Below, piece by piece: positions 9,197 to 43,500 of a stretch of 64,000 nucleotides of DNA. The notes under the pieces are model-generated. The model ran no database searches. It was not told where the DNA came from and saw only the letters and a program-made list of their open reading frames with translations. The DNA lies in the NCBI GenBank assembly GCA_028870995.1, contig JAGWOI010000008.1, forward strand, positions 3,468-67,467, in the 5' to 3' direction. Source of the stretch: Candidatus Omnitrophota bacterium (GTDB lineage Bacteria; Omnitrophota; Gorgyraeia; Zapsychrales; Fredricksoniimonadaceae). Within the stretch, counting starts at the first letter, position 1. Every line of letters begins with the position of its first letter. Made by a program: the position numbers and the translations under genes.

Positions 9197-9200
9197 AACT

Positions 9201-9788: not shown

Positions 9789-9792
9789 AGGT

Positions 9793-10719: not shown

Positions 10720-11939
10720 GCATCAGGCGCAAATGGCTGTGGGGACTGCTCGCAGCGGTCGTTTTTACCGGGCTTTTAGGCAGGTATTTGGACAGGGTGC
10801 CCAAACGGCATTATTGCGATTTTCGCGTGTATCATCATGCGTCCGTAAGGATGGCGGCCGGGGAGGACATTTATGTCCGCGATACCATGGCGGTAACACC
10901 GTTTAAGTATTCGCCTTTTTTTGCTTTTTGTTTTATTCCCTTAGGGCTTTTGCCCATCAAAATTGCCGCGGGCCTGTTTTTTGCTCTTAATTTTATTCTG
11001 ACCATCGTTTTATTCCGCCTGGCGGCGGATATTGCTGAAGTAAGGGCCGCCGCGGCCCGGGCCGGCGCCCTGCCGCTGCTTTACGGGTTGGCGGTTTTAT
11101 TTTCAGCAAGGTTTATTTTCCTGGTCTGGGATTCAGGCCAGGTCAATATTTTAATGTGTGTCCTGGTGCTGGCCGGTTTGATGTTGGTCTCCAAGGGTAA
11201 GGATATGCCGGCAGGGGCCTGCCTGGCCGCAGCCATATTGATTAAATATGTACCGGCCGTTTTCTTGCCGTACCTGCTTCTTCAGAAAAAGTTTAAAGCG
11301 GTTGCGTGGACCTTGGCTTTTTTGGTCATTGGACTTGTATTGCCGTCGATGGTGGTGGGAGTCCAGAAAGACATTTCTTATTTGGGCTCATGGCTGCCCT
11401 TTATTACGCAAACGTCGCTGGACAAATTATCATATATCGACATCAAAAACCAATCCTTGTTTTCGATGGTCATCCGGTCCTTCAGCGCCAGCGGCATGGG
11501 CGTCAACATCATGCATTTGAGTTTTGAGCAGGGAAAGATCCTGGGGATTGCCATTTCAGCGCTGCTTTATGCGCTGGTGTTGGTTAAGGGGAAAAGACAA
11601 CCGGGACAGGCGGGGCTTGATGCGGCCCTGCTTTTTTGCTTTATGGCTCTTTTTAATCCCAATGGGTGGGAGCTGAACTTTGTGGCTTTGGGATTGCCGT
11701 ATATATTATTGATTGGATATTTAATTGAGGTAAAATGGAAAGACTCCTTTGTGACAATGAGCGTTATAATGGCAGCGGTGCTAAGCTCTGTTTTTGCCAG
11801 GGACGTCCTCGGCAAGGTCATGGAGAATGACAGCAATCTATGCAGCAATGTAACGATCGCGACGTTGCTTTTAATTGCCGCATTGTTTCAACTTAAATTT
11901 CTAAAGATTAAATCTATTAATGGAAAGGAAGTAGTATGA
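10716..11939 (+). CDS. Polytopic membrane protein, DUF2029/GT87-like putative glycosyltransferase
   Basis: It has at least 9 predicted TM helices. The N-terminal loop 'DFRVYHHASVRMAAGEDIY...PFKYSPFFA' is similar to DUF2029 (GT87 mannosyltransferase-like) proteins. Confidence 0.5.
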   Translation: MSIRRKWLWGLLAAVVFTGLLGRYLDRVPKRHYCDFRVYHHASVRMAAGEDIYVRDTMAVTPFKYSPFFAFCFIPLGLLPIKIAAGLFFALNFILTIVLFRLAADIAEVRAAAARAGALPLLYGLAVLFSARFIFLVWDSGQVNILMCVLVLAGLMLVSKGKDMPAGACLAAAILIKYVPAVFLPYLLLQKKFKAVAWTLAFLVIGLVLPSMVVGVQKDISYLGSWLPFITQTSLDKLSYIDIKNQSLFSMVIRSFSASGMGVNIMHLSFEQGKILGIAISALLYALVLVKGKRQPGQAGLDAALLFCFMALFNPNGWELNFVALGLPYILLIGYLIEVKWKDSFVTMSVIMAAVLSSVFARDVLGKVMENDSNLCSNVTIATLLLIAALFQLKFLKIKSINGKEVV

Positions 11940-12868
11940 AGATTTTAGTGACAGGAGCAGCAGGGTATATCGGTTCCATTTTGGTGCCGCGTCTGTTGGC
12001 CGAAGGGCATGAAGTCATTGCACTTGACAACTTTATGTACAACCAATCTTCTTTGCTGGATGTCTGTTACCATGACCGCCTGACCATCGTGCGGGGCGAC
12101 ACCCGTGACAAGGCCCTGATGACCCGGCTCATGAAGGACGCCGACGCTATTTTTCCTCTGGCCTGCCTGACCGGGGCGCCTCTATGCGCCAAGGATCCCG
12201 TCGGTGCACAGACCATCCTGCTGGATGCCGTCAACATGATCCTGCAGTTGCGAAGCCGGGATCAAAGGGTCATTTTTCCCACCACCAACAGCGGCTACGG
12301 GATCGGGGAGAAAGGCAAGCACTGCACGGAAGAAACCCCGTTACGCCCCATTTCCTTGTACGGGAAATTAAAAGTCGAAGCGGAGAACGCCATCCTCTCT
12401 GCCGGCAACGGGATAACCCTTCGCCTGGCCACGGCTTTTGGGGTTTCCCCGCGCATGCGCCTGGATCTCTTGGTCAATGATTTCACCTACCGGGCCGTGT
12501 ACGACCGGTTCGTGATCCTGTTCGAGGCCCATTTCAACCGCAATTACATCCACGTGCGGGACATCGCCAAGGCTTTTATCCACGCGTTGAATAATTTTGA
12601 CAAGATGAAGAACCAACCCTATAATGTCGGCTTAAGCGACGCTAATTTAACCAAACTGCAATTATGCCAGGAAATTAAAAAACTCGTCCCCGATTTTTAT
12701 TTTGTGGAAGCCACCATCGGCGAGGACCCCGATAAGCGTGACTACATCGTCAGTAACGAAAAGATCGAAAAGACCGGCTTCAAACCTGATGTTTCCCTTC
12801 AAAAAGGTCTACAGGAATTGATCAAAGGGTATCAAGTCATCAAGCGTAACCAATTTGCCAATATTTAA
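11936..12868 (+). CDS. NAD-dependent epimerase/dehydratase (extended SDR)
   Basis: 'MKILVTGAAGYIGSILV' is a Rossmann motif and YxxxK is 'YGKLK'. It sits inside the glycan cluster. Confidence 0.75.
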   Translation: MKILVTGAAGYIGSILVPRLLAEGHEVIALDNFMYNQSSLLDVCYHDRLTIVRGDTRDKALMTRLMKDADAIFPLACLTGAPLCAKDPVGAQTILLDAVNMILQLRSRDQRVIFPTTNSGYGIGEKGKHCTEETPLRPISLYGKLKVEAENAILSAGNGITLRLATAFGVSPRMRLDLLVNDFTYRAVYDRFVILFEAHFNRNYIHVRDIAKAFIHALNNFDKMKNQPYNVGLSDANLTKLQLCQEIKKLVPDFYFVEATIGEDPDKRDYIVSNEKIEKTGFKPDVSLQKGLQELIKGYQVIKRNQFANI

Positions 12869-12874
12869 AAGCCT

Positions 12875-14389
12875 ATGAAACAGCTCGATGTTTTGTTTGT
12901 GCACGCCAACGCTTCCCGGCGGATCTACCAGGACCTGGCCAAGGACTTCTCCGCCATCGAGCCGCCCATCTGGGCGGGATTGCTGGCCGGTCATTGCCGG
13001 CTGAAAGGGTTTTCCGTCGATATTTTGGATTGCGAAGCCCTGCATCTGGATGAGGAGCAGTCCGCCAACAGCATAGCGCAGGCCAAGGCCCGCTTGGTCT
13101 GTTTTGTGGTTTACGGGCAGCAGCCTTCGGCCAGCTCCCAGAACATGGCCGGGGCAACCAGCCTGGCGGAGGCTGCCGAAAAGCTTGCCCCTGAATCGAA
13201 GATCATTTTTGTCGGCGGTCATGTGGCGGCCCTGCCGCGGGAGGTACTGGAGCGGCATCAGGCCATCGATTTTGTCTGCCAGAACGAAGGCGTTTACACC
13301 ATTTCCAATTTATTGAAGACCAACCTCAACGATCAATTGGACAAGGTGGACGGTCTTGGTTTTCGTCAGGGGGCGCAAATTATGTTGAACAGGCCTTCGC
13401 CCATCGTGGCCAAGGCCGATCTGCCCCGCGAGATGCCAGGTGTCGCCTGGGACCTGTTGCCGTCGGCCAATTACCGCACCTCGCTTTGGCATTCCTATCC
13501 GAATAATTCCATACGCCAGCCTTTCGCGGCCCTGTACACGTCCTTAGGCTGCCCCATGCGTTGTTCCTTTTGCATGATCAATATCATCAACCGCCAGGAG
13601 AATGAGTTTTCCGACGGTTCGGCGGTGTTCCGCTACTGGGAGCCGGATCATATCATCCAACAATTCGATTATTTTGCCTCCCAAGGCATCACCAATATCA
13701 AGATCGCCGATGAGCTTTTTGTGCTCAGAAGCGACCATTTCCTGAAACTCTGCGAGCTGATCATCCAGCGCGGGTATAAATTCAACATCTGGTGTTATTC
13801 CCGCGTGGACACGGTCAAGGACCAGTACCTGGCCACCCTTAAGAAAGCCGGGGTCAATTGGCTGGCCCTGGGGATCGAAAGCGGCGTCTCCAAGGTGCGT
13901 AAGGACGTCACCAAGGGGCGCTTTGAAGATGTGGATATCCGCGGCGTTGTCGCCAAGATCCGCGAGCACGGCATCAATGTCATCGGCAACTATATTTTCG
14001 GCCTGCCGGAGGATGACTTAAGCAGCATGCAGATGACCCTTGACCTGGCCATGGAGATGAATACCGAGGAGGCCAATTTCTATTCGGCCATGGCTTATCC
14101 GGGTTCACCCCTGCACGGCCTGGCCCGCAAGGAGGGCTGGAAATTGCCGTCAAGCTACGCCGGTTTCTCCCAGCATTCCTATGAATGCCAGCCCCTGCCG
14201 ACCAAGCATTTGACCGCCCAGCAGGTCCTGGCCTTCAGGGATGAGGCCTGGATGAAGTACCACACCAGCGGCAAGTTTTTGGATCTCCTGAAACAGAAAT
14301 TCGGCCAGGCGGCTGTGGATGAGACGGTCAAATCCACTAAAATCAAATTAAAACGTAAAATCCTAGAAGAGGCTTCTATCGCTCCATGA
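12875..14389 (+). CDS. B12-binding radical SAM enzyme (class B; putative sugar C-methyltransferase or radical modifier)
   Basis: It has an N-terminal cobalamin-binding-like domain. The radical SAM motif is 'CPMRCSFC' (CxxxCxxC). The length is 504 aa. Confidence 0.8.
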   Translation: MKQLDVLFVHANASRRIYQDLAKDFSAIEPPIWAGLLAGHCRLKGFSVDILDCEALHLDEEQSANSIAQAKARLVCFVVYGQQPSASSQNMAGATSLAEAAEKLAPESKIIFVGGHVAALPREVLERHQAIDFVCQNEGVYTISNLLKTNLNDQLDKVDGLGFRQGAQIMLNRPSPIVAKADLPREMPGVAWDLLPSANYRTSLWHSYPNNSIRQPFAALYTSLGCPMRCSFCMINIINRQENEFSDGSAVFRYWEPDHIIQQFDYFASQGITNIKIADELFVLRSDHFLKLCELIIQRGYKFNIWCYSRVDTVKDQYLATLKKAGVNWLALGIESGVSKVRKDVTKGRFEDVDIRGVVAKIREHGINVIGNYIFGLPEDDLSSMQMTLDLAMEMNTEEANFYSAMAYPGSPLHGLARKEGWKLPSSYAGFSQHSYECQPLPTKHLTAQQVLAFRDEAWMKYHTSGKFLDLLKQKFGQAAVDETVKSTKIKLKRKILEEASIAP

Positions 14390-25155: not shown

Positions 25156-25739
25156 AGGTCGTTTTTTTGGACAGAGACGGGGTCATCAACAAATTCCCGG
25201 GCAACGGCGCCTATGTGACCAAGGTCAAGGATTTTCATTTCATCCCCGGCTCCGTCGAAGCTATCCGGGATTTGACCCAAAGCGGGCATAAAATTTTTGT
25301 CATCTCCAACCAGGCCGGTGTGGGCAAGGGGGTTTACTCACGGCACAAACTCCAGCGCATCGACGCCAAAATGATCAAAGGTGTCGAAAAGGCCGGCGGC
25401 AGGATCCGCAAAAGCTTTTATTGCACCCATCGTTCCGACGCCGGCTGTGATTGCCGCAAGCCCGGCATAGGGATGCTTAAAAAAGCCTTGAAGTCCCTCA
25501 ACAAGACCATTGCCCACGCCCAGAAGGCCTTTTTCGTCGGCGACACCGAGGGAGACATCAAGACCGGGCATAATGCCGGTTGCAAGACCATTTTTGTGCT
25601 TTCAGGCCGGGAAAACCGCCGGTACATGCGCAAGTGGACCGTCAAACCCGATCATATCGTCAAGGATTTGAAGGCCGCCGCTTCGATCATTCAACATGCG
25701 AATTCTAATCATTCACGCAACAGCCGGCGCGGGGCATAA
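25152..25739 (+). CDS. gmhB: D-glycero-D-manno-heptose 1,7-bisphosphate phosphatase (HAD-IIIA)
   Basis: 'VVFLDRDGVIN' is HAD motif I. 'VISNQAGV' is present. The zinc-binding region is 'CTHRSDAGCDCRKP'. 'VGDTEGD' is present. Confidence 0.8.
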   Translation: MKVVFLDRDGVINKFPGNGAYVTKVKDFHFIPGSVEAIRDLTQSGHKIFVISNQAGVGKGVYSRHKLQRIDAKMIKGVEKAGGRIRKSFYCTHRSDAGCDCRKPGIGMLKKALKSLNKTIAHAQKAFFVGDTEGDIKTGHNAGCKTIFVLSGRENRRYMRKWTVKPDHIVKDLKAAASIIQHANSNHSRNSRRGA

Positions 25740-26784
25740 AAAAGCCGCCGAGGCGGTCTTCCGGGGGCTTGAGTCCCAAGGCGGACACCAGGTTATCTTT
25801 GCCGACGCGCTGGATTACACCAATCCTTTCTTCAAAAAGTCTTATCCGTGGGTGTATACCTTTATGGTCACACGCCTGCCCTGGGCATGGGGCTTTTTCT
25901 TCGGACTGCTCGACAGACCCTGGATGCAGCCGCTGCTTGCCCTGGCCCGCCGCCTGTACAATGGCTTTAATGCCGCCCCTTTACAGCAATGGCTCATCAA
26001 AGAACAATTTGACGTGATCATTGCCACGCATTTTTTGTCGGCGGAAGTGGGCGCCTATCTTAAAAGGGAAGGCAAGATCAAATCCAGGCTCATCTGTGTG
26101 GTGACGGACTTTGATGCCCATCGCATTTGGGTCAACAGGGGCACGGATATTTATACCGCGGCGTGTGAATACACAAAGAACAAGCTTGAGAGCCTCGGGG
26201 TTTCTCCCGATAAGATCTTCATCACCGGCATACCGACTGACCCCAAATTCAACCTGACGCAGGACAAGACCGCCTTAAAGAAGAAACTGGGGATCCAGGA
26301 GAATCTATTGACTATCTTGATCGCCACCGGCTCTTTCGGGATGGGGCCGATCGAACAATTGGCCGGACTGCTGAAAGACTATCAGCTGCTCATCGTTTGC
26401 GGGCATAACCGCAGCCTTTATGAACAATTAAAACCATTAATGCAAAAGGACGGACATGTGCTGGTCCTGGGCCTGGTCGATAACATGCATGAATTGATGT
26501 CGGTCGCTGATATGATGGTCACCAAGCCCGGCGGGCTCTCCATTGCGGAAGCCCTGGTCAAGAACCTGCCCATGATATTCTTCAGCGCCATTCCCGGCCA
26601 GGAGACCAACAATATCAAGGTCCTGGCCAGTTATCAGGCCGCCCAGGGACAGTGTTCCCTGGACCAGATTGTCAAGACCGTCCGGGAATGGCATTCCCAT
26701 CCACAACAATTAGCGGCGCTGCGCGGGCGGCTGGCGGCCCTGGCGCATCCCCGTGCCGTTGTCGATATAATCTCTCTGATATGA
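25696..26784 (+). CDS. MGDG-synthase/UgtP-like glycosyltransferase (GT28), diacylglycerol or lipid glycosyltransferase
   Basis: The N-terminus 'ILIIHATAGAGHKKAAEAV' is typical of the MGDG_synth domain. The C-terminal Glyco_tran_28_C-like region is 'VTKPGGLSIAEAL'. Confidence 0.75.
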   Translation: MRILIIHATAGAGHKKAAEAVFRGLESQGGHQVIFADALDYTNPFFKKSYPWVYTFMVTRLPWAWGFFFGLLDRPWMQPLLALARRLYNGFNAAPLQQWLIKEQFDVIIATHFLSAEVGAYLKREGKIKSRLICVVTDFDAHRIWVNRGTDIYTAACEYTKNKLESLGVSPDKIFITGIPTDPKFNLTQDKTALKKKLGIQENLLTILIATGSFGMGPIEQLAGLLKDYQLLIVCGHNRSLYEQLKPLMQKDGHVLVLGLVDNMHELMSVADMMVTKPGGLSIAEALVKNLPMIFFSAIPGQETNNIKVLASYQAAQGQCSLDQIVKTVREWHSHPQQLAALRGRLAALAHPRAVVDIISLI

Positions 26785-28499
26785 TCGCACAGGTGGCCTT
26801 CGACCTGCCCCTCGAGGGGCCTTTTGATTATCTCATTCCGGAGCCTCTGGCCTCCCGGGTGGCTGTAGGCTGCCGGGTCAGGGTTTCCTTTGGATTCCGT
26901 CCCAAAACCGGATTTGTGGTGGGGTTATTGGCACAAAGCGCCCTGCCTAAACTAAAACCGGTCCTGGCAGTGGAGGACAGCGGTAATTTTAATGATCTGG
27001 ACCTTCAGTTTGCCAGAAGTTTCAGCGCCTATTACGGCTGCAGCCTTGGAGAGACCCTGGCTGCCACTTTAAGGAATAAGCAGGAGGCCGGACCTTCCGT
27101 CCGGCGGGAAGGCTCGCCGCGCTTTGTTTTATGCCGCTGCAGCCCGGCGGATTACGCCGCCCGGATCCGGGCGGTCAGGGAAGGGTACAAAAAAGGGCGT
27201 TTTTTAATCCTGGTCCCTGATGCCTTCAGGGGCCGGATGCTTTCTTCCGCGGTCGACGGAGAGGTCAAGATGGGCACCCGTTCGCTGGTGTTCGAAACCG
27301 ACGGCCGTTATGACTGTGTCATCATGGTGGATGAAGAGGATGCCTCCTACAAGCAAGAGCAAAGCCCCATGTATGAGACCCGTCAGGTGCTCTTGCAGCG
27401 TGCCGCCATTTATGGGTTCGATGTGGCCTTTGTGGGGATTACACCGTCGGTGGAATTGATGGCTTTGGTGCGCGAAGGCAAGATCCAAGAACTTGAGGCG
27501 GCCCGCGTTGATGTTCCCACGGTCAGGTTGGTGGACTTGTCCAATTACAAATTTATTCCAGGCCTGGTCTCTCCGCCGGTGCGGGAAGCCCTGGAAAATG
27601 CCTTGAAGGCGGGGCAGAAGGGGCTTTTGATCTTAAACCGTAAAGGTTCCTACCGCCTGACCCGCTGTGTGGATTGCGCCGAGATCCTCAAATGCGAACG
27701 CTGCGACAGTCCTCTTTATTTTTCAAGGGCCGAGGGCAAATACCTCTGCCGCCATTGCCCATTCACGGCCCCCGGCGACACCGTATGTCCCAAATGCCAA
27801 AACCAAAGCTGGCGTTCGCAGGGCATCGGCGTCGAGCAGGTCCAGGCGGAATTAAAGAAAATATTCCCGACAGCGCGGATCGCCGCTTTCGAGCGCGAGA
27901 CAAAATCTTCGGCACGCCGGCAAGAGGTGGACGCCCGTGCCGATATCCTGATAGCCACCCAGGCAGCCTTACGCTTTCAGGGACAATGGCAGGCCGGGGT
28001 CGCCGCATTTATCGATTTTGACAGTCAGCTAAACCGTCTGGACATGTCTGCCGGCTTTAAGGCCTTCAGTCTGACCTTGCATATCGGCGGCATGGCCCAG
28101 ACTGTGTTCATCCAGACCCGTAACATCAATCATCATGTGCTTCAATGCCTTGCCCGGGCTGATATGGGGGGATTTTACGACGAAGAATTGAAATTAAGGC
28201 AGGAATTGGGCTTCAGCCCCTTTAAACACTGGGTCAAAATAAGCTGGCGCGGGCCATCGGAAAAATCAACCCACCAAGCGGCCTGTCATGTGTATAATGA
28301 ACTGGCAAAGGCGGCTCCCCAAGTTTGTTTGATCACCGAACCGGCCGCTGAAGCGGTGGCCCGCAAGCGGGGCCAGTTTCGTTTTCAGGTGATGGTGCAG
28401 GCCGATGAGGTGCCGCCTGCCGTGGCCTTCATCAAATCAGCCATCGCCAGGGTCAAACGGACCAGCGGGGTGATTACGACGATCAATGTCGATCCGTGA
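26781..28499 (+). CDS. priA: Primosomal protein N' (PriA) homolog lacking the Walker A P-loop
   Basis: The PriA N-terminus is 'MIAQVAFDLPLEGPFDYLIPEPL...VGCRVRVSFG'. The DEAH-box region reads 'VIMVDEEDASYKQEQSPMYETRQV'. The Cys-cluster zinc finger is 'LNRKGSYRLTRCVDCAEILKCERCDSPLYF...CRHCPFTAPGDTVCPKCQN'. No GxGKT/S motif occurs anywhere in the protein. Confidence 0.7.
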   Translation: MIAQVAFDLPLEGPFDYLIPEPLASRVAVGCRVRVSFGFRPKTGFVVGLLAQSALPKLKPVLAVEDSGNFNDLDLQFARSFSAYYGCSLGETLAATLRNKQEAGPSVRREGSPRFVLCRCSPADYAARIRAVREGYKKGRFLILVPDAFRGRMLSSAVDGEVKMGTRSLVFETDGRYDCVIMVDEEDASYKQEQSPMYETRQVLLQRAAIYGFDVAFVGITPSVELMALVREGKIQELEAARVDVPTVRLVDLSNYKFIPGLVSPPVREALENALKAGQKGLLILNRKGSYRLTRCVDCAEILKCERCDSPLYFSRAEGKYLCRHCPFTAPGDTVCPKCQNQSWRSQGIGVEQVQAELKKIFPTARIAAFERETKSSARRQEVDARADILIATQAALRFQGQWQAGVAAFIDFDSQLNRLDMSAGFKAFSLTLHIGGMAQTVFIQTRNINHHVLQCLARADMGGFYDEELKLRQELGFSPFKHWVKISWRGPSEKSTHQAACHVYNELAKAAPQVCLITEPAAEAVARKRGQFRFQVMVQADEVPPAVAFIKSAIARVKRTSGVITTINVDP

Positions 28500-28508: not shown

Positions 28509-29441
28509 ATGCGCATTGTTTTCTTCGGCAGTGATGAATTTGCAGCGGTACATCTGGAGGCTTTATTGGCCGCCGGCCAGCAGGTGGCTGCCTGCGTCAC
28601 CGGTCCGGACAAGCCGCAAGGCCGCGGCATGAAACTTACCGTCCCGCCCATTAAGCAAATGGCGCTGGATCGGCAAATCCCTTGCCTTCAGCCGGCATCG
28701 CTTAAAGATAAGGCTGTCACAGAAGCCTTGAAAGCCTATCAGGCTGATATTTTTGTGGTCGTGGCCTACGGGTATCTGTTGACGCAGGAGATCCTGGATA
28801 TCCCCCGCTTTTTATGCATGAACGTTCACGGGTCGCTGCTTCCAAAATACAGGGGCGCGGCACCGGTCAATTGGGCTGTCCTCAATGGCGATAATGAAAC
28901 CGGCGTGAGCATCCAGAAGATGGTGCTGCGTCTTGATGCCGGAGACATTATTGCCCAGGAGAAAATGACGATCGGCGGGGATGAAGATGCCGGACAATTG
29001 CGAGGGCGCATGAGCCGGGTGGGAGCCGGGTTGTTGGTCAAGATTTTGAAGGAACATCCGCAGGGGGATTTCCCTTTGATCCCGCAAGATCAAGCCTTGG
29101 TCACTTATGCACCCAAGTTAACCAAGGACATGGGCAGGATCGACTGGAAAAAGACTGCCGCCTCCGTCAATAATCAGGTGCGCGGCTTGCAGCCCTGGCC
29201 TGGCGCGTACACGTTTTATAAAGGGAAAATGCTTAAAATAATCAAGTTGCTGGTCACGGCTGAAGCCGGCGGCGGCTTTTCGCCGGGCCAGGTGATAAAG
29301 ACGGACAAAAATGGTTTTTATGTGGCCTGTGCGGACAAGGCCCTGCTGGTCAAGGAAGTGCAGCCTGAAGCAGGCCGGGTGATGCCTGCCGCAAGCTTTG
29401 TGGCCGGGTATAAAGTAATACAAGGGAGTTTATTAGAATAA
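28509..29441 (+). CDS. fmt: Methionyl-tRNA formyltransferase
   Basis: 'MRIVFFGSDEFAAVHLEALL', 'HGSLLPKYRGAAPVNWAV' and the C-terminal Fmt domain are present. Confidence 0.9.
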   Translation: MRIVFFGSDEFAAVHLEALLAAGQQVAACVTGPDKPQGRGMKLTVPPIKQMALDRQIPCLQPASLKDKAVTEALKAYQADIFVVVAYGYLLTQEILDIPRFLCMNVHGSLLPKYRGAAPVNWAVLNGDNETGVSIQKMVLRLDAGDIIAQEKMTIGGDEDAGQLRGRMSRVGAGLLVKILKEHPQGDFPLIPQDQALVTYAPKLTKDMGRIDWKKTAASVNNQVRGLQPWPGAYTFYKGKMLKIIKLLVTAEAGGGFSPGQVIKTDKNGFYVACADKALLVKEVQPEAGRVMPAASFVAGYKVIQGSLLE

Positions 29442-29558
29442 AAATAGGGAGAGCTTCCTATTTAATGATATAATTTCGTTTATGGCCGCTTTCGCTGCAA
29501 TAAAAATTAAGGAAAGCGGCACTTTGAATCAGTGGAAAAGCTTAATGGAATTTTAAGG

Positions 29559-30533
29559 ATGTCGCAACTGCGCAAAGATCCTGTTGTCAGTCGTTGGGTG
29601 ATCGTGGCCACAGAACGGGCCCGTCGGCCGGCGGCTTTTGTCGATCCCCAATCCAGTGCGACCGATCCCAAGAACTGTCCTTATTGCCATGATACCGCCT
29701 CAAAGGTGGTGCATGAATCCCATGGCGTCAGGGTCATCAACAGCAGCGGCCCCATCCTGGACGGCAGCAAGCCTTTTGAGCGCCGTGCCCACGGGCTTTA
29801 CGAAGTGGCGCATAGTCACGGCAGCCACGAGATCGTGGTGGAAACGCCCCAGCATGTGGCCAATATGGCGGACCTGCCCGTGGCACAAATTACGGCCGTT
29901 TTCCAGACCTATGCCTTGCGTATGCAAGCCCATCGGGAGAACCCTTTTGTCGAGTATGTGCTGGCCTATAAGAATTATGGCGTCGCCGCGGGCAGCCGTG
30001 CTATCGGGCACGCCCGTTCCCAAATCATGGCCGTACCGGTCCTGCCCATGCGGATCAAGGACAAGACCAGGGGCGCTGAAAAATATTTCGATTACCACGA
30101 GCGCTGCTTGTTTTGCGACATCGTGGCCCAGGAATTAAAGCGGGGCGAACGATTGGTTTCCCAAAACGAGCATTTTGTGGCCGTCACTCCCTTTGCCCCG
30201 CGTTTTCCCTTTGAGACGTGGATCCTGCCCAAGGAGCATCATTGCGATTTCGCGCAAGGGGTCGTCGGCTTCGAGGATTCCCTGGCCGCCCTGATAAAGG
30301 ACGTATTATTACGTTTCAAAATAGGATTAAATGATCCGGCCTACAACTATATGATCCAGACCGCGCCGGTCAAAAGGCCATCCGCATTCAAGGATGATTA
30401 TCATTGGCACATCGAGATCATGCCGCGGTTGACCCGGGTGGCGGGCTTTGAGCGGGGGACGGGTTTTTATATCTGCCCCATCCCACCGGAGATGACCGCC
30501 GATTTTTTAAAAGAGGTTGATATCCATGCCTGA
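29559..30533 (+). CDS. Galactose-1-phosphate uridylyltransferase (GalT, HIT-like) family paralog with Arg at the nucleophilic His position; predicted catalytically inactive
   Basis: The N-terminus is 'RKDPVVSRWVIVATERARRP', the zinc motif is 'CPYCHD', and the active-site motif reads 'IGHARSQ' where HPHxQ is expected. Confidence 0.8.
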   Translation: MSQLRKDPVVSRWVIVATERARRPAAFVDPQSSATDPKNCPYCHDTASKVVHESHGVRVINSSGPILDGSKPFERRAHGLYEVAHSHGSHEIVVETPQHVANMADLPVAQITAVFQTYALRMQAHRENPFVEYVLAYKNYGVAAGSRAIGHARSQIMAVPVLPMRIKDKTRGAEKYFDYHERCLFCDIVAQELKRGERLVSQNEHFVAVTPFAPRFPFETWILPKEHHCDFAQGVVGFEDSLAALIKDVLLRFKIGLNDPAYNYMIQTAPVKRPSAFKDDYHWHIEIMPRLTRVAGFERGTGFYICPIPPEMTADFLKEVDIHA

Positions 30534-31521
30534 GCTCAGACGTGATCCGGTGGTTGGACGCTGGGTCATCATTGACAGCGAGCACCTTAAAACACCCAAG
30601 GATTTTCCCAAGGACGATAACACGCCTATACGGCAGGCGATTTGCCCTTTTTGTCCCGGCCGCGAACATCAAACGCCGCCGGAAGTGGATGCGGTCCGCC
30701 CATCGGGCAGCGCTGCCAATTCGCCGGGCTGGCTGGTGCGCACGGTCCCCAATAAATTCCCGGTGCTGGGCAGCGAGGGTGAGTTTAAAAAGGAAGGGGC
30801 CGGTATCTATGACCAGATGAGCGGCATCGGCGCCCATGAAGTGGTGATCGAAGGTCCTGATCATGATAAGAATCTCGACCAGCTGACGGCTGAAGAGATG
30901 CGCGCCGTTATAGGCCAGTACGGCAGCCGCTTTCGCCAATTGTCCCAGGACAGCCGGTTCAAATATATCGTGATTTTCAAGAATTTTGGCGAGTCGGCCG
31001 GGGCCACCATCGAACATCCTCACAGCCAGATCATTGCCTTGCCCATGGTGCCTAAAACCGTGTTGGAAGAGCTCAAAGGCACCGAGTATTATTATCAGTA
31101 CCATGGGCGTTGTGTTTTATGCGACATCATTTCCCAGGAATATCATGATAAGGAACGTATCGTTGCCGAGAACACCAGCTTCCTGGCTTTCTGTCCCTAT
31201 GCCCCGCGGTATTGCTTTGAAACATGGATCATCCCTAAAGGCCATAGCGCGGACTTTGCCGGCGCCGATGACCAAACCCAGTTTCACCTGGCCCAGATCC
31301 TGCAGGATGTCCTTAAAAAGGTCAAAAAAGCCCTGGGCAATCCTTCCTACAATTATTATCTGCATACGGCGCCGCTGGGATATGCCAACCCGGCCTGTTA
31401 CCATTGGCACATCGAGATCATTCCCAAATTGACCCGTAGCGTCGGTTTTGAATGGGGGACAGGGTTGCATATTGTGCCCACCTTCCCGCAGGATGCGGCC
31501 CGCTATTTAAGGGAAGCTTAA
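30526..31521 (+). CDS. galT: Galactose-1-phosphate uridylyltransferase (GalT) family, canonical HPH motif
   Basis: The N-terminus is 'RRDPVVGRWVIIDSEHLKTP', the zinc motif is 'CPFCPG', the active-site motif is 'IEHPHSQ', and the second half-site has 'HWHIEIIPK'. Confidence 0.85.
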   Translation: MPELRRDPVVGRWVIIDSEHLKTPKDFPKDDNTPIRQAICPFCPGREHQTPPEVDAVRPSGSAANSPGWLVRTVPNKFPVLGSEGEFKKEGAGIYDQMSGIGAHEVVIEGPDHDKNLDQLTAEEMRAVIGQYGSRFRQLSQDSRFKYIVIFKNFGESAGATIEHPHSQIIALPMVPKTVLEELKGTEYYYQYHGRCVLCDIISQEYHDKERIVAENTSFLAFCPYAPRYCFETWIIPKGHSADFAGADDQTQFHLAQILQDVLKKVKKALGNPSYNYYLHTAPLGYANPACYHWHIEIIPKLTRSVGFEWGTGLHIVPTFPQDAARYLREA

Positions 31522-32633: not shown

Positions 32634-33587
32634 ATGGCCGCAACCGATCTGCCGACATTATCGTGCTGGGTCGCCAGTCAAGGCCTTATCGGCCTCCAGA
32701 ACCAGGCCGAAGGGCTTGCCCGGGCGCTGGGGTTTCCTTTCACCATAAAAGAGTTCAAAAAACCGCGCGGCTGGCGGCCTTGGCCGCTGCCCCCTGAAAA
32801 ATACGGTTTTCTGCCGCCCTGGCCCGATGTGCTCATCACCTGCGGGTGCCAGAGCGCCGGCCTTTCCGTGGCTGTGCGCCGGGCGAGTCAAGGCAAGACC
32901 TTCACGATCCATATCCAGGACCCGGCCATGGCGCCTAAGCATTTTGATGTGGTGGTGGCTCCCAGCCATGACAAGGTGCGGGGGGAAAATGTTTTTGTGA
33001 GCCAGGGATCGGTGCACCATGTGACCCTGGAGAAGCTTAAAGAGGCGGCCGATCATTTCAGGCCGTTGTTGGGCCGCCTGCCGCGGCCGCTCGTCAGCGT
33101 GCTGGTAGGCGGCTCCAATAGGCACCAGGACTTTTCCACCGTGATTGCCCGTGACTTGGCCGGCAAGCTCTTGGCGGCCGCAAAAGCCAGCGGCGGGGGG
33201 CTGGCGGTCTCGCCTTCGCGGCGGACGGGTGCCGCCAACGAGGCCCTCCTGCGCCAGGAACTACGGGCTGTGCCTTCCTATATATGGGACGGCAGCGGTG
33301 AGAATCCTTATTTTGGCCTTTTGGGCTTAGGGGACGCCATCGTGGTCACCAGCGATTCCGTTTCCATGATTTCCGAAGCCTGTTCCAGCGGCAAACCCGT
33401 CTATATATATGAATTGCCAAACGCCGGCAAAAGGCATAAAATTTTTTTGGAGAGTTTTATTCGACAGGGCCTGGTGAGACTCTTTAAGGGCAGTATTGAG
33501 CCCTGGGAGGCAACAGCGCTCAATGAAACCCAAAAGGCCGTTGATTTTATTCGCTTGCGACTCAAAGAAAGGTGGGGAAGGACATGA
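32634..33587 (+). CDS. ELM1/DUF1022-family protein (predicted GT-B-like fold, function unknown)
   Basis: The N-terminus 'LSCWVASQGLIGLQNQAEGLARALG' and the overall length and composition resemble bacterial 'mitochondrial fission ELM1' family proteins. Confidence 0.55.
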   Translation: MAATDLPTLSCWVASQGLIGLQNQAEGLARALGFPFTIKEFKKPRGWRPWPLPPEKYGFLPPWPDVLITCGCQSAGLSVAVRRASQGKTFTIHIQDPAMAPKHFDVVVAPSHDKVRGENVFVSQGSVHHVTLEKLKEAADHFRPLLGRLPRPLVSVLVGGSNRHQDFSTVIARDLAGKLLAAAKASGGGLAVSPSRRTGAANEALLRQELRAVPSYIWDGSGENPYFGLLGLGDAIVVTSDSVSMISEACSSGKPVYIYELPNAGKRHKIFLESFIRQGLVRLFKGSIEPWEATALNETQKAVDFIRLRLKERWGRT

Positions 33588-35533
33588 TAACACCGGTACT
33601 CACTCAGAAAAGATCTCTGGACATTAAAACGTTTAATAATACAGGCGGTTCTTCCGCGCTGTTTAAAGCGCTCGGTCATCCCTTGACCGCATCTAAGATG
33701 AATGGTCTTATCAGTTCCTTGTCCTCGTTGGGCAGGGTGGCGGTCTATGATCCTCTGGGACAGGCGGCAGAGTGGCAGGCCCTTTATGATATCTCTTCCG
33801 TTAAAATTGCCGCTGTTTTTGTCCAGAATGTGGCCGACCTCGACAAGCAGCTGTTGGGTAAGAATACACAGCCGGTGATGGATTTAGCAAAGGCCCAGGC
33901 CGATGCACTGGTGGTGACAGCTTTCGACGCGGCCCGCCTGGTCGCCCAAATCCAGCATTTACTGCCTCAAGGCCTTAAGATATTGTCCTTTGATGATGTC
34001 CGCCTTCCCGATGAATTTCTCACCAACACCCGTCATTACCTTGATCCTTTGAATTTCGCCACCAATTTTGTTTTCTTCAGGGAAGAGGCAGGCCACCACA
34101 CGCGGCTGGTCACGGCCAATTATTGGGCCGGATACAGCCAGAAGGAGGTGGGCCTCTGGTGCTGCCTTTTCGACAAGGACGGCAAGGCCTTGTCCCAGTG
34201 GTGGGAGAAACTTAAAAAAAGCGTTCATACCATCACGCTCGACAGCAAGGAAATCAAGGAGCGCCTGAAGCTGGGGTCATTTACCGGCAGTTTGTTTGTG
34301 CATTTTACCGGTGTCGCCGGCCATGATGTGGCCAAATATGCCTTGGATACGTACGGCGACGTTGAAACCGTGCTTTCCTGCACGCACGATGCCAATCCCT
34401 GGCCCGCGGATCTTTATGCCGGTCTGCCGGCGCCCAAGGAAGGCAGCCAGGTGTTGCTGTGGGTGCAAAACAGCCATCCCTGCCCGATTCCGGCCAACAG
34501 CATCGGCTTAAGTTTCATGGGTTCGGATGAGGTGGTTGTGTATGATAAACCGATCGGTGGTTTTGCTACCGTTGAGCTGGATACGGCAGAGTTTTTCCCG
34601 AAGGCCAGGTGGCCTCAGCAGTTTGAAGTTCATGCGGGCCGGTATTTTGTCCGCCCCCGGTACGAAGTGATCGATCAGGTCAAAGGCCGCTGTCTCATTG
34701 CGCATACCAACGTCGAGCGCACTGATTTGAAGGCCGATCCGGCCATTCCGGCCTTGGGCCGCGTCATGGGCAAAATTTACATCCTGCCCATGCCGGTATT
34801 GCCGGTCGACCGCTGGCAGACGATCGTGCTGCCGACACCGATGTCCACGGCGCAGAAGAATTTGCCGCTGGCCTTGTCGATCTATGACCGTCAGGGCAAG
34901 AAAGTGGCTTCTCATTTTTTGGGGGTATTGGATCGCGCCTCCATTAAGGATTTCAATATCAATGATTTGTTAAGCAAGCGTTCTCCAGAGGATTTTCCCG
35001 AAGGATTCGGTCATGTGGAATTGACCTATGATTTTTCGCAAGGCGGTCAGGCCGACGGCTGGCTGCATGGGCTGGTGCGCTACGAAGACACTCAAAGCGG
35101 TCATAACGCAGAAACCAGCTTCGGTTCCCATATTTTTAATACCGTACTGGTTTATAAAAATGAGCCGCAGTCTTACGCGGGCAGACCGCCGGGCTTGAGC
35201 ACCCGGCTTTTTTTGCGCCTGTGGCCGGGTGAGGAAGTCGATACCTTGTGCCATTTGATCTATCCGGCTTCAACGCCCTGGCATGCTCAGTCTATGACAG
35301 ACCTTATCCTGACCGATGCCGATGGTCGGGAGGTGCACAAGAAAACCGTGCGCATTCCCTGCAGCGGTTCCTTGTTCTGGCGCTATCATGAGATGTTCAG
35401 TCAAGAAGAGCGCCGGCGCGCGGGCAAGAATGCCTACATCATCATCCGTGACATGACCTGCCGCCTGTTCGGTTATCACGGGCTGATCAACGACGGCAAG
35501 GCCTTTTGTCTGGACCACATGTTCGGTTTTTAA
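33572..35533 (+). CDS. Large hypothetical cytoplasmic protein with three or four internal repeats
   Basis: It is 653 aa with no recognisable catalytic motif. Recurrent segments are 'CLFDKDGKALSQ', 'SIYDRQGKKVASH' and 'ILTDADGREVHKK', each preceded by aromatic-rich stretches. Confidence 0.5.
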   Translation: MGKDMITPVLTQKRSLDIKTFNNTGGSSALFKALGHPLTASKMNGLISSLSSLGRVAVYDPLGQAAEWQALYDISSVKIAAVFVQNVADLDKQLLGKNTQPVMDLAKAQADALVVTAFDAARLVAQIQHLLPQGLKILSFDDVRLPDEFLTNTRHYLDPLNFATNFVFFREEAGHHTRLVTANYWAGYSQKEVGLWCCLFDKDGKALSQWWEKLKKSVHTITLDSKEIKERLKLGSFTGSLFVHFTGVAGHDVAKYALDTYGDVETVLSCTHDANPWPADLYAGLPAPKEGSQVLLWVQNSHPCPIPANSIGLSFMGSDEVVVYDKPIGGFATVELDTAEFFPKARWPQQFEVHAGRYFVRPRYEVIDQVKGRCLIAHTNVERTDLKADPAIPALGRVMGKIYILPMPVLPVDRWQTIVLPTPMSTAQKNLPLALSIYDRQGKKVASHFLGVLDRASIKDFNINDLLSKRSPEDFPEGFGHVELTYDFSQGGQADGWLHGLVRYEDTQSGHNAETSFGSHIFNTVLVYKNEPQSYAGRPPGLSTRLFLRLWPGEEVDTLCHLIYPASTPWHAQSMTDLILTDADGREVHKKTVRIPCSGSLFWRYHEMFSQEERRRAGKNAYIIIRDMTCRLFGYHGLINDGKAFCLDHMFGF

Positions 35534-35538
35534 AATTT

Positions 35539-36447
35539 ATGGAAAAAAGGTCTCTGCATCCGCAGTTTGCCCATTTCCGCGCCCTTATCAATCGAGAAGG
35601 AAGATCGAATATCCACAGCTCCAGGGAAAGGCATAATCCGCTGTTGGACCTTTACCATTATCTTTTTTCTCTCTCCTGGCCCAAGTTCTTCCTCTGTATC
35701 GCCGCCGTTTATCTGTTGATCAACCTGTGTTTTGGAAGTTTCTATTTTTTCGATGGGGTGGATATCCTAAAGAAGGCATCAGGCCTCCAACGTTTCAGTC
35801 ATTGCTTTTTATTGAGCGTCGAAAATATGACGGCCGTCGATTACAGCAGGGTGGAGCGCGGCAGCGGCGGGGTGTACCTGTTGATGACGGTCCAGGCATT
35901 CCTTGGGCTCCTGACCCTGGCCGTGATCACCGGTCTTTTTTACGCGCGGTTTTCGAGGGCCACCGCCAGGGTCATTTTCAGCAATAAAATCACCATTGCT
36001 CCTTATAACGGCAGGACGTGCCTTTCTTTCAGGATCGCCAATGAACGTTTGAACCAGATTGCGGAAGCCCGGATGTCCCTGCACATGACCAGAAATGAGG
36101 TCAGCCGGGAAGGGGAACATACCCGCAAATTTTATGACCTTAACTTGGAGCGCAGTCATACGCCCTTGTTTTCGTTAAGCTGGACGGTGAGGCACTTTAT
36201 CGACGAATACAGCCCCCTGTTCGGCATGGATGAACAACAAATGAAGGAAGCCCAAATGGGCATCCTGGCGTCGTTGACCGGCACCGACGAGACTTTTTCC
36301 CAGCCCATCATGGCCCGCCATGCGTATTCCGTCGAAGACATTGTTTACAACCGGCGTTTTAAAGATATCATAATATGGCAGGATAAGAAGGTGCATATCA
36401 ATTTAAAAGGCATCCACGACCTGCACGAGGCGGACATGGGCCGCTAA
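35539..36447 (+). CDS. KirBac-like inward-rectifier-fold channel with a non-canonical selectivity filter
   Basis: 'LSVENMTAVDYSRV' aligns with the KirBac 'FSVETLATVGYGDM'. 'YLFSLSWPKFF' is a slide-helix/TM1 match. The cytoplasmic Ig-like domain is 'ARVIFSNKITIAPYNGRTCLSFRIANERLNQIAEARMSLHMTRNE'. Confidence 0.75.
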   Translation: MEKRSLHPQFAHFRALINREGRSNIHSSRERHNPLLDLYHYLFSLSWPKFFLCIAAVYLLINLCFGSFYFFDGVDILKKASGLQRFSHCFLLSVENMTAVDYSRVERGSGGVYLLMTVQAFLGLLTLAVITGLFYARFSRATARVIFSNKITIAPYNGRTCLSFRIANERLNQIAEARMSLHMTRNEVSREGEHTRKFYDLNLERSHTPLFSLSWTVRHFIDEYSPLFGMDEQQMKEAQMGILASLTGTDETFSQPIMARHAYSVEDIVYNRRFKDIIIWQDKKVHINLKGIHDLHEADMGR

Positions 36448-40561: not shown

Positions 40562-43500
40562 ATGCTGTCCAAGTTTTTTATAGATAGACCGATATTCGCC
40601 TGGGTCATCTCTTTATTGATCTTGCTCATGGGAATCGTGGCCATTACCCAATTGCCCGTGGCCCAGTATCCAAGCGTGGCTCCTCCGTCGATATCAGTCA
40701 TTGCCAACTATGCCGGCGCTTCCGCCGAGACCCTGCAGGAGACGGTCACCTCGGTCATCGAGCAGCAGCTCAACGGCATCGATCATTTGCTTTACATGTC
40801 CTCCTCCAGCAATTCCAGCGGGCAGGCCATGATCTCCCTTTATTTCGAACCCGGCACCAATCCCGATACGGCCCAGGTGCAGGTCCAGAACAAGCTGCAG
40901 CTGGCCCTGCCGAGCCTGCCAATCGTCGTCCAGCAGGCCGGCGTCACCGTCGTTAAATCCACGCGTAATTTCCTGATGTTCTTCACCTTGTCATCTACCG
41001 ACGGCAGCATGAATGCCGTCGACCTCGGCAATTATATTTCCGCCCATGTCTTGCAACCTATCAGCCGCCTACCGGGAGTGGGCGAGGCGGATTTGTTCGG
41101 CACGGAGTATGCCATGCGCGTCTGGATGGATCCGCAAAAACTTTATAGCTACAGATTGACGGCAGGGGACGTGATCGCAGCCCTTCAGGCGCAGAACATC
41201 CAGGTGCCTTTGGGACAGCTGGGGGCGAGACCCGCGGTCAAGGGGCAGGAATTGAACATCACCCTTCAGGGTCAGGGGACCTTGCGCAGCCCCAAGGAGT
41301 TCGGCAATATTCTTCTCAAGGTGAATCCCGACGGCTCACGGGTGTACTTGCGTAATGTCGCACGGGTGGCCCTGGCCGGATTGGACTATACCACCCAGGC
41401 GTTCATCAACGGCCGGCCATCGGCGGCCGTGGCCATTAAATTGACCCCCACGGCCAATGCCGTCAAGACCGCCGATGCGATACGGGCGAAAGTGGCCGAG
41501 CTTTCCCAATACTTCCCGCCGCATATTAAGGTCAATTTCCCTCTGGACCAGTCCGCCTTCGTGCGCATCTCCATCCAGGAGGTCATCAAGACCCTGCTTA
41601 TCGCCATCTTTCTCGTGTTTTTGGTCATGTATCTGTTCCTGCAGAATTTCCGCACGACCCTGATACCCACGATCGTAGTACCGGTGGCCTTGATGGGGAC
41701 ATTCACGGCCATGAAGGCTTTTGGATTTTCCATCAATGTGTTGACCCTGTTCGGCATGGTGCTGGCCATCGGCATGCTGGTCGATGATGCCATTGTGGTG
41801 GTTGAAAACGTTGAGCGCCTCATGCGGGAGGAGGGGCTAGGTCCCCGGGAGGCCAGCATCAAGGCCATGGAGCAGATCACCGGCGCGCTCGTTGGTATTT
41901 CGCTCGTACTGACGGCGGTCTTTATCCCCATGGCCTTTTTCGGCGGGTCAGTGGGGGCCATTTACCGGCAGTTCTCCTTGTCGCTCATTGCCTCGATGCT
42001 GTTTTCCATCTTTCTGGCCCTGACCATGACCCCGTCCTTGTGCGCCTCGATGCTCAAGCCCATTCCGCCGGGACATCATGACCAAAAGCGCGGCTTTTTC
42101 GGCTGGTTCAACCGCTTTTTCGATAACAGCCGCAACACCTATCAGAGCATCATCGCCCGTATGATGAAAGGCACCGTGCGGTATTTCCTCATCTACTTGG
42201 CCATCATTGCCGCCATTGTTGTTCTGTTCTCCCGGCTGCCGTCGTCGTTCTTGCCGGAAGAGGACCAGGGTTATTTCATCACGCTTGTTTCGCTGCCGGT
42301 GGGCGCTACCCAGCAACGGACACTGAAGGTGCTCAAACAAGTGGAACAATATTTCCTGAAACAGCCGGAAGTCCGGGAGATCATCACCGTGGCTGGATTC
42401 AGTTTCAACGGCCGCGGCCAGAATTCGGCGCTCGCCTTTATCCGCCTGAAGGACTGGAGCCAGCGTCCCGGCGCGGTTCATAAAGCGCCGGCGATCATCG
42501 GGCGGGCATTTATGGCCTTCTCCAGGATCAAGGACGCCATTATCTATCCGGTGAATCTGCCGCCTATCCCGGAACTGGGTACCTCCTCGGGGTTTGATAT
42601 GGAATTGGAGGATCAAGAGGGGCTGGGCCATGAAAAGTTCATGCAGGCCGTCCATCAATTGCTGGGTATGGCCGCTAAAAACCCCAATGTGTCGGGTGTG
42701 CGCATGCAGGGCCTGGAGGACGTGCCCGAGCTAAAGGTTAATGTCGACAAGGACAAGGCCAGCGCCCTGGGAATTTCCCTCGCGGAGCTTAACACCACCA
42801 TGCAAGCCGATCTGGGTTCCCTGTATGTCAATAATTTCGTGCACGGCAACCGGGTGCAGCGTGTGATGGTCCAGCTTGACGCGCCTTTCCGCATGCTTCC
42901 CCAGGACATCGATAAAATTTATGTGCGCAACAACCAGGGGAAGATGGTCTCCTTGGGGGGGCTTGTCCACCTGCAATGGGCTTATGGTTCTCCGCAATTG
43001 CAGCGGTACAACGGTGTTCCTGCCATCGAGATCGTGGGAAGTGCCGCGCCCGGCAAGAGTACTGGCCAGGCCATGAAAGCCATGGCAAGCCTTGTCAAAA
43101 AACTGCCGCCGGGTATCGGTTATGAATGGACAGGCCAGTCTTACGAGGAACTTTTATCCAGCGCCCAGGCACCGGCCCTGTTTATGCTTTCCTTAATTGT
43201 CGTCTTCCTGGCGCTGGCGGCCCTTTATGAAAGCTGGAACATTCCTTTTGCTGTTATGCTGGTCGTACCGTTGGGGATTTTGGGCTCGTTGCTGGCTGCC
43301 ACCTTACGCGGGCTTCCCAATGACGTGTATTTTAAAGTGGGTCTTTTGGCCATCATCGGTTTATCAGCCAAGAATGCTATTTTGATCGTTGAGTTTGCCA
43401 AGGACCTGCAAAAAGAGGGGAAGGAATTGGTCCAAGCCACCCTGGAGGCCGCTCATTTGCGCCTGCGGCCCATCCTGATGACATCCATGGCTTTTATTTT

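Follow-up and report, generated by a model that had tools for sequence, protein, structure and literature searches.

Can a PriA protein that has lost its motor still be of use at the replication fork, and which of its parts would then have to be kept? According to a review on replication restart published in 2018, Deinococcus is the only exception to the conserved helicase activity of PriA (PMC5778457). The question is raised again by a stretch of 64,000 nucleotides from a Candidatus Omnitrophota bacterium (contig JAGWOI010000008.1; the whole stretch is called the window below). From the letters of this DNA alone, one of its genes had been proposed to encode a PriA homologue without a P-loop, i. 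e. a primosome loader unable to hydrolyse ATP (the original prediction). Our work supports this idea: The gene is probably the orthologous priA of the organism that has been turned into a pseudohelicase, an ATPase-dead platform that would recognise forks and recruit the replicative helicase. The degenerate priA orthologue occupies positions 26781-28499 of the forward strand, exactly as proposed, and it is an intact open reading frame of 572 codons followed by a stop codon. Its ATG overlaps with the stop codon of the upstream gene in the sequence ATGA (26784/26781), and all homologues in the alignment begin with MIAQV, indicating that the ATG at 26781 is the real start. For these two reasons, a longer open reading frame that begins with a GTG at 26652 was rejected.

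The original prediction had recognised an N-terminal DNA-binding region and a Cys-rich zinc-finger insertion. Both were recovered, the former as a clear Pfam match and the latter as eight cysteines (positions 296, 299, 305, 308, 323, 326, 336, and 339) that are spaced exactly as in E. coli PriA and that are predicted to bind two zinc ions. The parts of the protein and the remnants of its motor are:

26781-27071, forward strand: 3'-DNA-binding domain, residues 1-97 (Pfam PF17764, PriA_3primeBD, residues 4-97, E=2.7e-19)
27072-27119, forward strand: short linker, residues 98-113, at the place of the winged-helix domain of about 90 residues of E. coli PriA (from the alignments)
27120-27500, forward strand: trimmed, motif-degenerate RecA-like lobe 1, residues 114-240 (from AlphaFold2 secondary structure and the alignments)
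27120-27167, forward strand: strand beta-1, remnant of the Walker A loop and start of helix alpha-1, 'RFVLCRCSPADYAARI', residues 114-129 (from the alignments and the model)
27327-27341, forward strand: remnant of motif II (Walker B), 'VDEED', residues 183-187, with the acidic residues kept and the DExH histidine replaced
27345-27383, forward strand: aromatic-rich DNA-binding loop 'SYKQEQSPMYETR', highly conserved
27501-28217, forward strand: RecA-like lobe 2, residues 241-479, with the Cys-rich insertion (from structure matches, AlphaFold2 and the alignments)
27666-27797, forward strand: Cys-rich region, residues 296-339, CxxC-x5-CxxC-x14-CxxC-x9-CxxC, with the E. coli spacing (C436...C479)
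28077-28100, forward strand: remnant of motif VI, 'LHIGGMAQ' (compared to 'VAGRAGRA'), in which both arginines of QxxGRxGR are lost
28218-28496, forward strand: PriA C-terminal domain, residues 480-572 (Pfam PF18074, PriA_C, E=5e-12)

The middle of the protein is a different matter. The Pfam domains DEAD, ResIII and Helicase_C gave no match in the 572 residues even at E<=1, and no nucleotide-binding Pfam domain was detected. The NCBIfam model for PriA (TIGR00595) scores 225.3 bits, just below its cut-off of 230.35, and only the model positions 78-508 are matched; as positions 1-77 remain unmatched, the Walker A end of the model finds nothing in the protein. Scores of the actinobacterial PriA models (PRK14873) are lower, 37-131 bits as compared to 153-231 bits for the PRK05580 and TIGR00595 models, which places the protein outside the actinobacterial PriA subfamily. 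The PriA proteins of mycobacteria and streptomycetes are reportedly flagged in UniProt as being without detectable helicase domains; if so, they would represent another lineage whose PriA has no motor. The solved PriA structures of Klebsiella pneumoniae and E. coli were matched at E=1e-43 in two blocks, residues 2-95 and 160-541, and between these blocks only 64 residues (96-159) face about 200 residues of PriA. The winged-helix region measures 8 residues as compared to 95 in E. coli and 29 in the canonical PriA of the Omnitrophota, from which the winged-helix domain is absent as well, and the lobe 1 region measures 88 residues as compared to 131-133 in canonical forms, with about 40 residues deleted between the motifs Ia and Ib. 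In spite of these losses, we are confident that, as modelled, the PriA-like fold with its two RecA-like lobes has been kept: An AlphaFold2 model based on the family alignment reached a mean predicted local distance difference test score (pLDDT) of 90.8 and a predicted template modelling score of 0.89. The best Foldseek matches of this model are all PriA structures (8fak, 6dcr, 6dgd and 4nl4; E=1e-41 to 1e-37, template modelling scores of 0.76-0.78), and generic superfamily 2 helicases come next at E~1e-5.

How much of the motor is left? Motifs were called from a MAFFT alignment with E. coli PriA, from HMMER, and from a profile-profile alignment with canonical Omnitrophota PriAs (probability 100%, E=2.3e-90), and the three kinds of alignment agree on the motif loss. 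The Walker A sequence 'GITASGKTEVY' of the canonical Omnitrophota proteins ('GVTGSGKTEVY' in E. coli) has become 'CSPAD-----Y': Five residues are missing from the loop that connects strand 1 to helix 1, and a GK[ST] is not found there. The profile-profile alignment places 'HGITASGKTEVY' opposite 'C--xG---xY', and the model runs from a strand (115-119) into a helix (122-134) at the former P-loop junction with pLDDT values of 93-95. It had been claimed that 'RFVLCRCSPADYAARI' stands in the place of the Walker A motif, that there is no GK[ST] anywhere in the open reading frame, and that DEED is found where DEEH is expected. All of this proved right: The segment occupies residues 114-129, the only GK dipeptides of the protein are GKI (233) and GKY (319), and motif II reads 'VDEED'. 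The careful profile alignment that had been proposed as a check also finds the Walker A motif missing, both against TIGR00595 and in the profile-profile comparison. Beyond what the original prediction had described, the arginines of motif VI are lost ('QVAGRAGR' has become 'HIGGMA'), the motifs III (xTPS) and V (ATQA, in 'ILIATQA' of lobe 2) are degenerate, about 40 residues are deleted, and the winged-helix domain is absent; motif Ib (GTRSxxF) is retained. The same holds for the relatives described below: In the degenerate groups, the Walker A columns contain gaps or unrelated residues, R584 is replaced by Met or Leu, R587 by Glu or Asp, and Q580 of motif VI by His or Arg. None of the 101 members of the family of about 570 residues to which the protein belongs has a GK[ST] at the site aligned with Walker A. 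The tripeptide is present elsewhere in 48 of them, nearly always between residues 279 and 541 and in four cases between residues 112 and 171.

To judge from the alignments, every element for the binding and hydrolysis of ATP is lost, and the inability of the protein to bind or hydrolyse ATP via a P-loop, as originally proposed, is supported by all three kinds of alignment and by more than 300 relatives. We predict that both the DNA-dependent ATPase and the 3'-to-5' helicase activity are absent. By its features the protein belongs to the structural PriA family: It has the 3'-binding domain with its pocket, two lobes with the Cys-rich insertion, the C-terminal domain, and, as shown below, the orthologous position. 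As far as motifs and scores can tell, it does not belong to the PriA helicase equivalog, since motif I is missing, motif II is altered, the motif VI arginines are gone, the score is below the cut-off and helicase Pfam domains are not detected. Being derived from a PriA helicase and having lost the Walker A lysine together with other motifs, it fits with the definition of a PriA pseudohelicase that was given for D. radiodurans PriA (PMC4504706). It might be argued that such a protein is a cryptic enzyme that binds or hydrolyses a nucleotide at a non-canonical site. Indeed, the acidic Walker B residues (D-E-E/D) are present in most members, and for E. coli PriA a second, weak site for nucleotides was suggested by older biochemical studies (PMC5778457). 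With a shortened P-loop that has no Gly-Lys-Ser/Thr, with both arginines and Q580 of motif VI replaced, with degenerate motifs III and V, and with no nucleotide-binding Pfam domain detected, we regard this as very unlikely.

The loss of the motif might also be apparent, the result of a sequencing or assembly error, or the gene might be a decaying pseudogene, and the NCBI annotation as a mere 'hypothetical protein' would fit with this. The frameshift between 27050 and 27150 that the original prediction had named as a possible refutation is not there, however: Many stop codons interrupt the other two forward frames of the region 26600-27500, neither of these frames encodes a GK[ST], and the pattern G.TG[SA]GKT has no match in the six frames of the 64-kb window. 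A Walker A motif hidden by a frameshift or a sequencing error can thus be ruled out. Moreover, the reading frame is intact, and the identical protein is encoded on two contigs (GenBank MDE2027412.1 and MDE2222209.1, locus tag KGK03_03960, annotated as 'hypothetical protein' in a Candidatus Omnitrophica metagenome-assembled genome). The more than 300 full-length relatives, 29 invariant positions among 59 sequences and the confidently predicted fold complete the case, and the conservation data already refute an explanation that we consider extremely improbable.

Is the motor-less PriA a peculiarity of one organism? A word-indexed search revealed more than 100 full-length relatives of 560-640 residues with 39-67% identity and the same two-domain Pfam signature. 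When 1.84 billion cluster representatives were searched with a profile and the motifs of the matches were inspected, the number of full-length relatives with the same motor-less architecture rose to more than 300, the most distant of them with about 28% identity. In a census of 460 full-length sequences, 320 have neither Walker A nor the motif VI arginines, and about 130 are canonical. We distinguish three degenerate groups, and all their named members are Omnitrophota: (i) Group A, the family of about 570 residues to which the protein of the window belongs, is only one branch of a larger radiation. (ii) In group B (about 615 residues), lobe 1 is full-sized but has no GK[ST], and the motif VI arginines are missing. 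(iii) Group C (about 560 residues, 17 sequences) lacks not only Walker A and motif VI but also the whole zinc region with its eight cysteines. The members of group C, among them P0180 (6001-7686 of locus L009), P0231, P0251 and P0193, come from one Omnitrophota sublineage. On the other side of the series, the canonical Omnitrophota PriA of about 666 residues still has an unaltered GITASGKT, DEEH and GRAGR, and its DEAD, ResIII and Helicase_C domains are recognised by Pfam. The named top matches to one such canonical query (P0189) are all Omnitrophota; some other canonical sequences of the census have no known taxon. Intermediates of about 670 residues exist as well: In P0233 and P0237, the GSGKT is intact but the arginines of motif VI are missing, and P0238 has 'AQAKT' and DEEH but no motif VI. 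These sequences hint that the motif VI arginines were lost before the P-loop.

In a neighbour-joining tree, from which the PriA sequences of Deinococcus-Thermus and of the Actinobacteria were left out, the degenerate forms stand in one clade beside the canonical Omnitrophota PriAs, with the intermediates of about 670 residues at its base. Strict monophyly of the degenerate forms was obtained in 9 of 50 bootstraps, and in 34 of 50 if up to two canonical sequences were allowed inside. Because of the low value for strict monophyly, and since long-branch attraction is possible, we do not claim a single loss event. On the evidence of the sequences, the trait is common to a large group of Omnitrophota lineages rather than peculiar to the gene in the window. 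The forms can be arranged as an erosion series at one syntenic locus, which would lead from the canonical protein of about 666 residues via forms with a lost motif VI and a retained GSGKT to the protein of about 615 residues without P-loop, and further to those of about 570 residues and of about 560 residues without zinc region.

The location of the gene was the second argument of the original prediction, according to which it is found at a conserved position upstream of fmt and is probably the only priA of the organism. The anchors of this position in the window are:

25696-26784, forward strand: gene for a monogalactosyldiacylglycerol (MGDG) synthase-like glycosyltransferase, a conserved synteny anchor whose stop codon overlaps the priA start (ATGA)
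28509-29441, forward strand: fmt, encoding methionyl-tRNA formyltransferase, a conserved synteny anchor directly downstream of priA

The order HAD phosphatase, MGDG-synthase-like glycosyltransferase, priA, fmt surrounds the degenerate forms in the window and at the loci of group A (L002, on a contig of 1.29 Mb, L003 and L004), group B (L008, on a contig of 3.36 Mb) and group C (L009), and GalT-like genes usually follow fmt at these loci. The canonical Omnitrophota priA occupies the same slot at all four canonical loci examined (L005, on the 1.43 Mb of CP070780.1, L007, L015 and L020); L020 is cut upstream, yet the order uracil-DNA glycosylase gene, priA, fmt is still visible. Since canonical genes (four of four loci) and degenerate genes (six of six loci, and the window) share this slot, the gene of the window is an orthologue and not an extra copy. 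The flanking genes diverge by lineage and not by the type of PriA: Fmt identity is 43-47% between lineages with canonical and degenerate PriA and 45-51% among canonical lineages, whereas PriA identity falls from 56-61% among the canonical proteins to 26-29% between canonical and degenerate ones. Judged by position and sequence, the gene is the positional orthologue of a true helicase gene that has decayed in place and has evolved faster afterwards.

A uracil-DNA glycosylase gene (PF03167) is located between the MGDG-synthase-like gene and priA at all four canonical loci:

L005, 7313-8017: uracil-DNA glycosylase gene
L007, 7342-7992: uracil-DNA glycosylase gene
L015, about 4911-5597: uracil-DNA glycosylase gene
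L020, about 3636-4265: uracil-DNA glycosylase gene

It is missing at this position in all seven loci with a degenerate PriA, and no copy was found by tblastn in the 64-kb window.

These data bear on the possibility that the motor-less protein is an accessory paralogue, a specialised or regulatory partner of a canonical PriA that is encoded elsewhere in the genome. Canonical proteins (about 666 residues) and degenerate ones do both exist within the Omnitrophota, and the part of the genome that was inspected is the 64-kb window. All four canonical loci are, however, found at the very site of the degenerate gene and no canonical copy was seen at another site, the flanking genes diverge with the lineage rather than with the type of PriA, and the window has no PriA motif that bears a Walker A. 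In addition, none of the eleven contigs of more than 300 kb with a degenerate form recurs among the top 120 canonical matches, although this is a weak point. Taken together, the paralogue is in our opinion quite unlikely. A scan of reference genomes with a canonical lobe 1 fragment that includes Walker A (A3) gave, among the matches listed, mostly Bacillota and at least two Omnitrophota loci, both syntenic; this is a small sample. Within the window, a PriA-sized open reading frame of 747 codons (4025-6268) was considered as a second PriA and rejected, as LptD_N is its sole match, and a weak one (E=6e-6), and a PriA domain is absent; the 30 other annotated open reading frames of the window are unrelated to PriA. 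Thus, the location directly upstream of fmt was correctly described. That the gene is probably the only PriA of the organism is supported indirectly, by the slot common to canonical and degenerate forms, with the 64-kb window as the part of the genome inspected.

If the gene has been kept in place without its motor, which parts are under selection? Among 59 relatives, 29 positions do not vary at all and about 70 hardly vary; they are spread over the 3'-binding domain, the motifs Ib and II, the aromatic-rich loop, the cysteines and the C-terminal domain. This pattern argues for purifying selection on the degenerate PriA. The pocket that receives the nascent 3' end in E. coli PriA is made up of Asp17, Tyr18 and Lys61 (PMC5778457); their equivalents D16, Y17 and K59 are conserved in 100, 100 and 99%, respectively, of the members of group A. 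In the Asp17 column (residue 16, nucleotides 26826-26828), 70% of the canonical Omnitrophota PriAs have a His, and 94-100% of the motor-less forms have an Asp. The aromatic-rich loop, which crosslinks to fork-junction DNA in E. coli PriA (PMC5778457), keeps Y327, K328, Q329, P333, Y335 and R338 (E. coli numbering) in the canonical as well as in the degenerate groups, and each of the eight cysteines is present in 100% of the sequences of groups A and B. The conservation of the site for the SSB tail was also considered, but position 697, taken as the key residue R697, is a Ser in E. coli PriA, and we make no claim on SSB binding. Within the canonical Omnitrophota PriA, conservation is highest in the lobes, with a mean pairwise identity of 0.74-0.78 as compared to 0.58 for the 3'-binding domain. 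In the degenerate groups this order is reversed, with 0.56 for the 3'-binding domain versus 0.46 for the lobes in group A and 0.45 versus 0.33 in group B. The constraint has thus shifted away from the motor lobes and towards the DNA-binding domain.

A protein that changes so much may have changed its function, with the scaffold kept for another job such as helicase loading at the origin, protection of forks or sensing of branched DNA. PriA has evolved much faster than its neighbours (26-29% identity as compared to 43-47% for Fmt), and one sublineage has lost the Cys-rich region that is important in E. coli for the helicase function and for the interaction with PriB (PMC5778457). But it is precisely the features for fork recognition, i. 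e. the 3'-end pocket, the aromatic-rich loop and the C-terminal domain, that are the most conserved, the ancestral position and the translational coupling have been kept, and the binding of forks and DnaB survived the loss of the motor in Deinococcus (PMC4504706). A new function therefore seems unlikely to us.

The precedent of Deinococcus is indeed close. In D. radiodurans PriA, the Walker A and B motifs are degenerate and neither ATPase nor helicase activity is found (Lopper, Boone & Morrow 2015, PMC4504706), and yet the protein binds single-stranded DNA and forks with affinities near those of E. coli PriA and interacts with DnaB (PMC4504706). Both proteins are PriA orthologues that have lost the catalytic helicase motifs and are still under selection. 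The way in which the motor was lost differs: In the Deinococcus-Thermus proteins the motifs are substituted in place, with the lysine of GKT replaced by an arginine and a poor match to Walker B (PMC4504706), whereas the protein of the window has a P-loop that is shortened by five residues and has no GK[ST], does not carry the arginines of motif VI, and lacks about 40 residues of lobe 1 as well as the winged-helix domain. Since the nearest relatives and the syntenic orthologues are canonical Omnitrophota PriAs, the loss of the motor appears to be independent of that in Deinococcus. With the PriA proteins of E. coli and K. pneumoniae (4NL4, 6DGD, 8FAK) the protein shares the order of the domains, the fold, the 3'-end pocket, the aromatic-rich loop, the spacing of the eight cysteines and the C-terminal domain, but its chain is shorter by 160 residues, it lacks the winged-helix domain, Walker A and the arginines of motif VI, and it reads DEED instead of DEEH. 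The canonical Omnitrophota PriA (for example UCD55232.1, our P0381, on CP070780.1) comes from the same phylum and has the same chromosomal position and the same winged-helix-less architecture, but it has about 666 residues, intact motor motifs and the uracil-DNA glycosylase gene just upstream. A functional model for a motor-less PriA is provided by E. coli PriA-K230R (priA300), which has no ATPase, helicase or translocase activity but assembles primosomes, and the cells are nearly wild type (PMC5778457). This protein restarts replication in vivo and in vitro via the PriA-PriB route and not via PriA-PriC (PMC5778457). It is, however, a laboratory point mutant with an intact fold and intact other motifs; it requires PriB and DnaT and does not work in the PriA-PriC pathway (PMC5778457).

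With these precedents, a mode of action can be proposed for the protein. The retained scaffold, i. e. the 3'-end-binding domain, the two RecA-like lobes, the Cys-rich insertion with its two putative zinc ions and the C-terminal domain, would recognise abandoned forks and D-loops by docking the 3' end of the nascent leading strand in the N-terminal pocket, and the fork would be laid across the dead helicase core. As a passive platform, the protein would then recruit the replicative helicase DnaB, either directly or together with the loader of the cell and SSB, in the way in which D. radiodurans PriA and E. coli PriA-K230R apparently work. That the binding of single-stranded DNA and forks and the interaction with DnaB have been retained as in D. 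radiodurans is supported indirectly by the conserved pocket, loop and C-terminal domain. The nascent lagging strand would not be unwound by the motor-less PriA itself, so forks without a single-stranded lagging template would need another helicase or a nuclease, or they would not be restarted.

Several points weigh against the idea that the protein is a fork-recognising pseudohelicase. The acidic Walker B residues (DEE) are fairly conserved even though the P-loop is gone, and they may point to some residual role, in metal binding or otherwise. For this group of proteins, we infer the binding of DNA, the recruitment of DnaB and the absence of ATPase activity alike from the sequences. A second priA, or another restart system that makes the protein redundant, may be encoded beyond the inspected 64 kb. 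Finally, the PriA-PriC pathway and some other transactions in E. coli need the helicase activity of PriA (PMC5778457), and a motor-less PriA therefore implies a restart system that is narrower or differently organised. Even with these points in mind, the conversion of the orthologous priA to a pseudohelicase is the explanation that we hold to be probable.

Other genes of the window and of the related loci deserve to be mentioned. Downstream of fmt, the window carries two overlapping tandem paralogues that resemble galactose-1-phosphate uridylyltransferase and HIT-type proteins (DUF4921 and DUF4931; 29532-30533 and 30517-31521), and this pair is kept in most related loci. Further downstream, the open reading frames 32634-33587 and 35506-36447 stand out by a strong match to 'mitochondrial fission ELM1' (PF06258, E=6e-90) and, for the second protein, a C-terminal domain of inward-rectifier K+ channels (PF17655, E=3e-24); an open reading frame for 653 residues (33572-35533) has no Pfam match at E<=1e-5. 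Two adjacent genes for GGDEF diguanylate cyclases are found at 5-568 and 556-1584. Three open reading frames encode proteins of about 1,030-1,045 residues (40562-43678, 47629-50706 and 50661-53798); the first of them is an RND transporter of the AcrB family that is preceded by MarR and HlyD-like genes. In the relative GCA_044225175.1, a giant gene for a product of 3,895 residues lies directly downstream of fmt (8740-13737 of locus L003, running off the locus), and this fits with the very long proteins that were reported for the Omnitrophota (bioRxiv 10.64898/2026.06.07.730766).

What does a motor-less PriA mean for these bacteria? The Omnitrophota are ultra-small, and many of them are apparently host-dependent (PMC10066038). 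Our full-text searches of the literature found no mention of PriA in connection with this phylum, and the Omnitrophota genomics literature that we examined does not mention primosome, helicase, 'replication restart' or DnaB. The proteins score just below the NCBIfam equivalog cut-off. They are inconsistently named 'hypothetical protein' or 'primosomal protein N'', and the term 'helicase' would be wrong for them. As E. coli tolerates an ATPase-dead PriA and a pseudohelicase precedent exists, the finding is no conceptual surprise; for those who study replication restart, it is of interest as a large natural deletion series. With hundreds of sequence clusters, the Omnitrophota would be a second, much larger and apparently independent exception to the conservation of the PriA helicase, and the erosion goes deeper than in Deinococcus, with an excised P-loop, a motif VI without its arginines, a trimmed lobe 1 and, in one sublineage, the loss of the zinc region as well. 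We see an even chance that a large part of the phylum restarts or otherwise rescues replication with a motor-less PriA and that the series of its erosion is preserved at one locus. Canonical and degenerate orthologues at one locus in one phylum are a natural experiment on the question which parts of PriA serve restart and which serve unwinding, and how the lost motor is compensated for. If all forms are functional, the minimal restart module would be an inert frame of two lobes that carries the pocket for the 3' end, the aromatic-rich loop and the C-terminal domain, and, if this is true, PriA may hand off directly to DnaB in an ATP-independent manner without PriB, DnaT or PriC.

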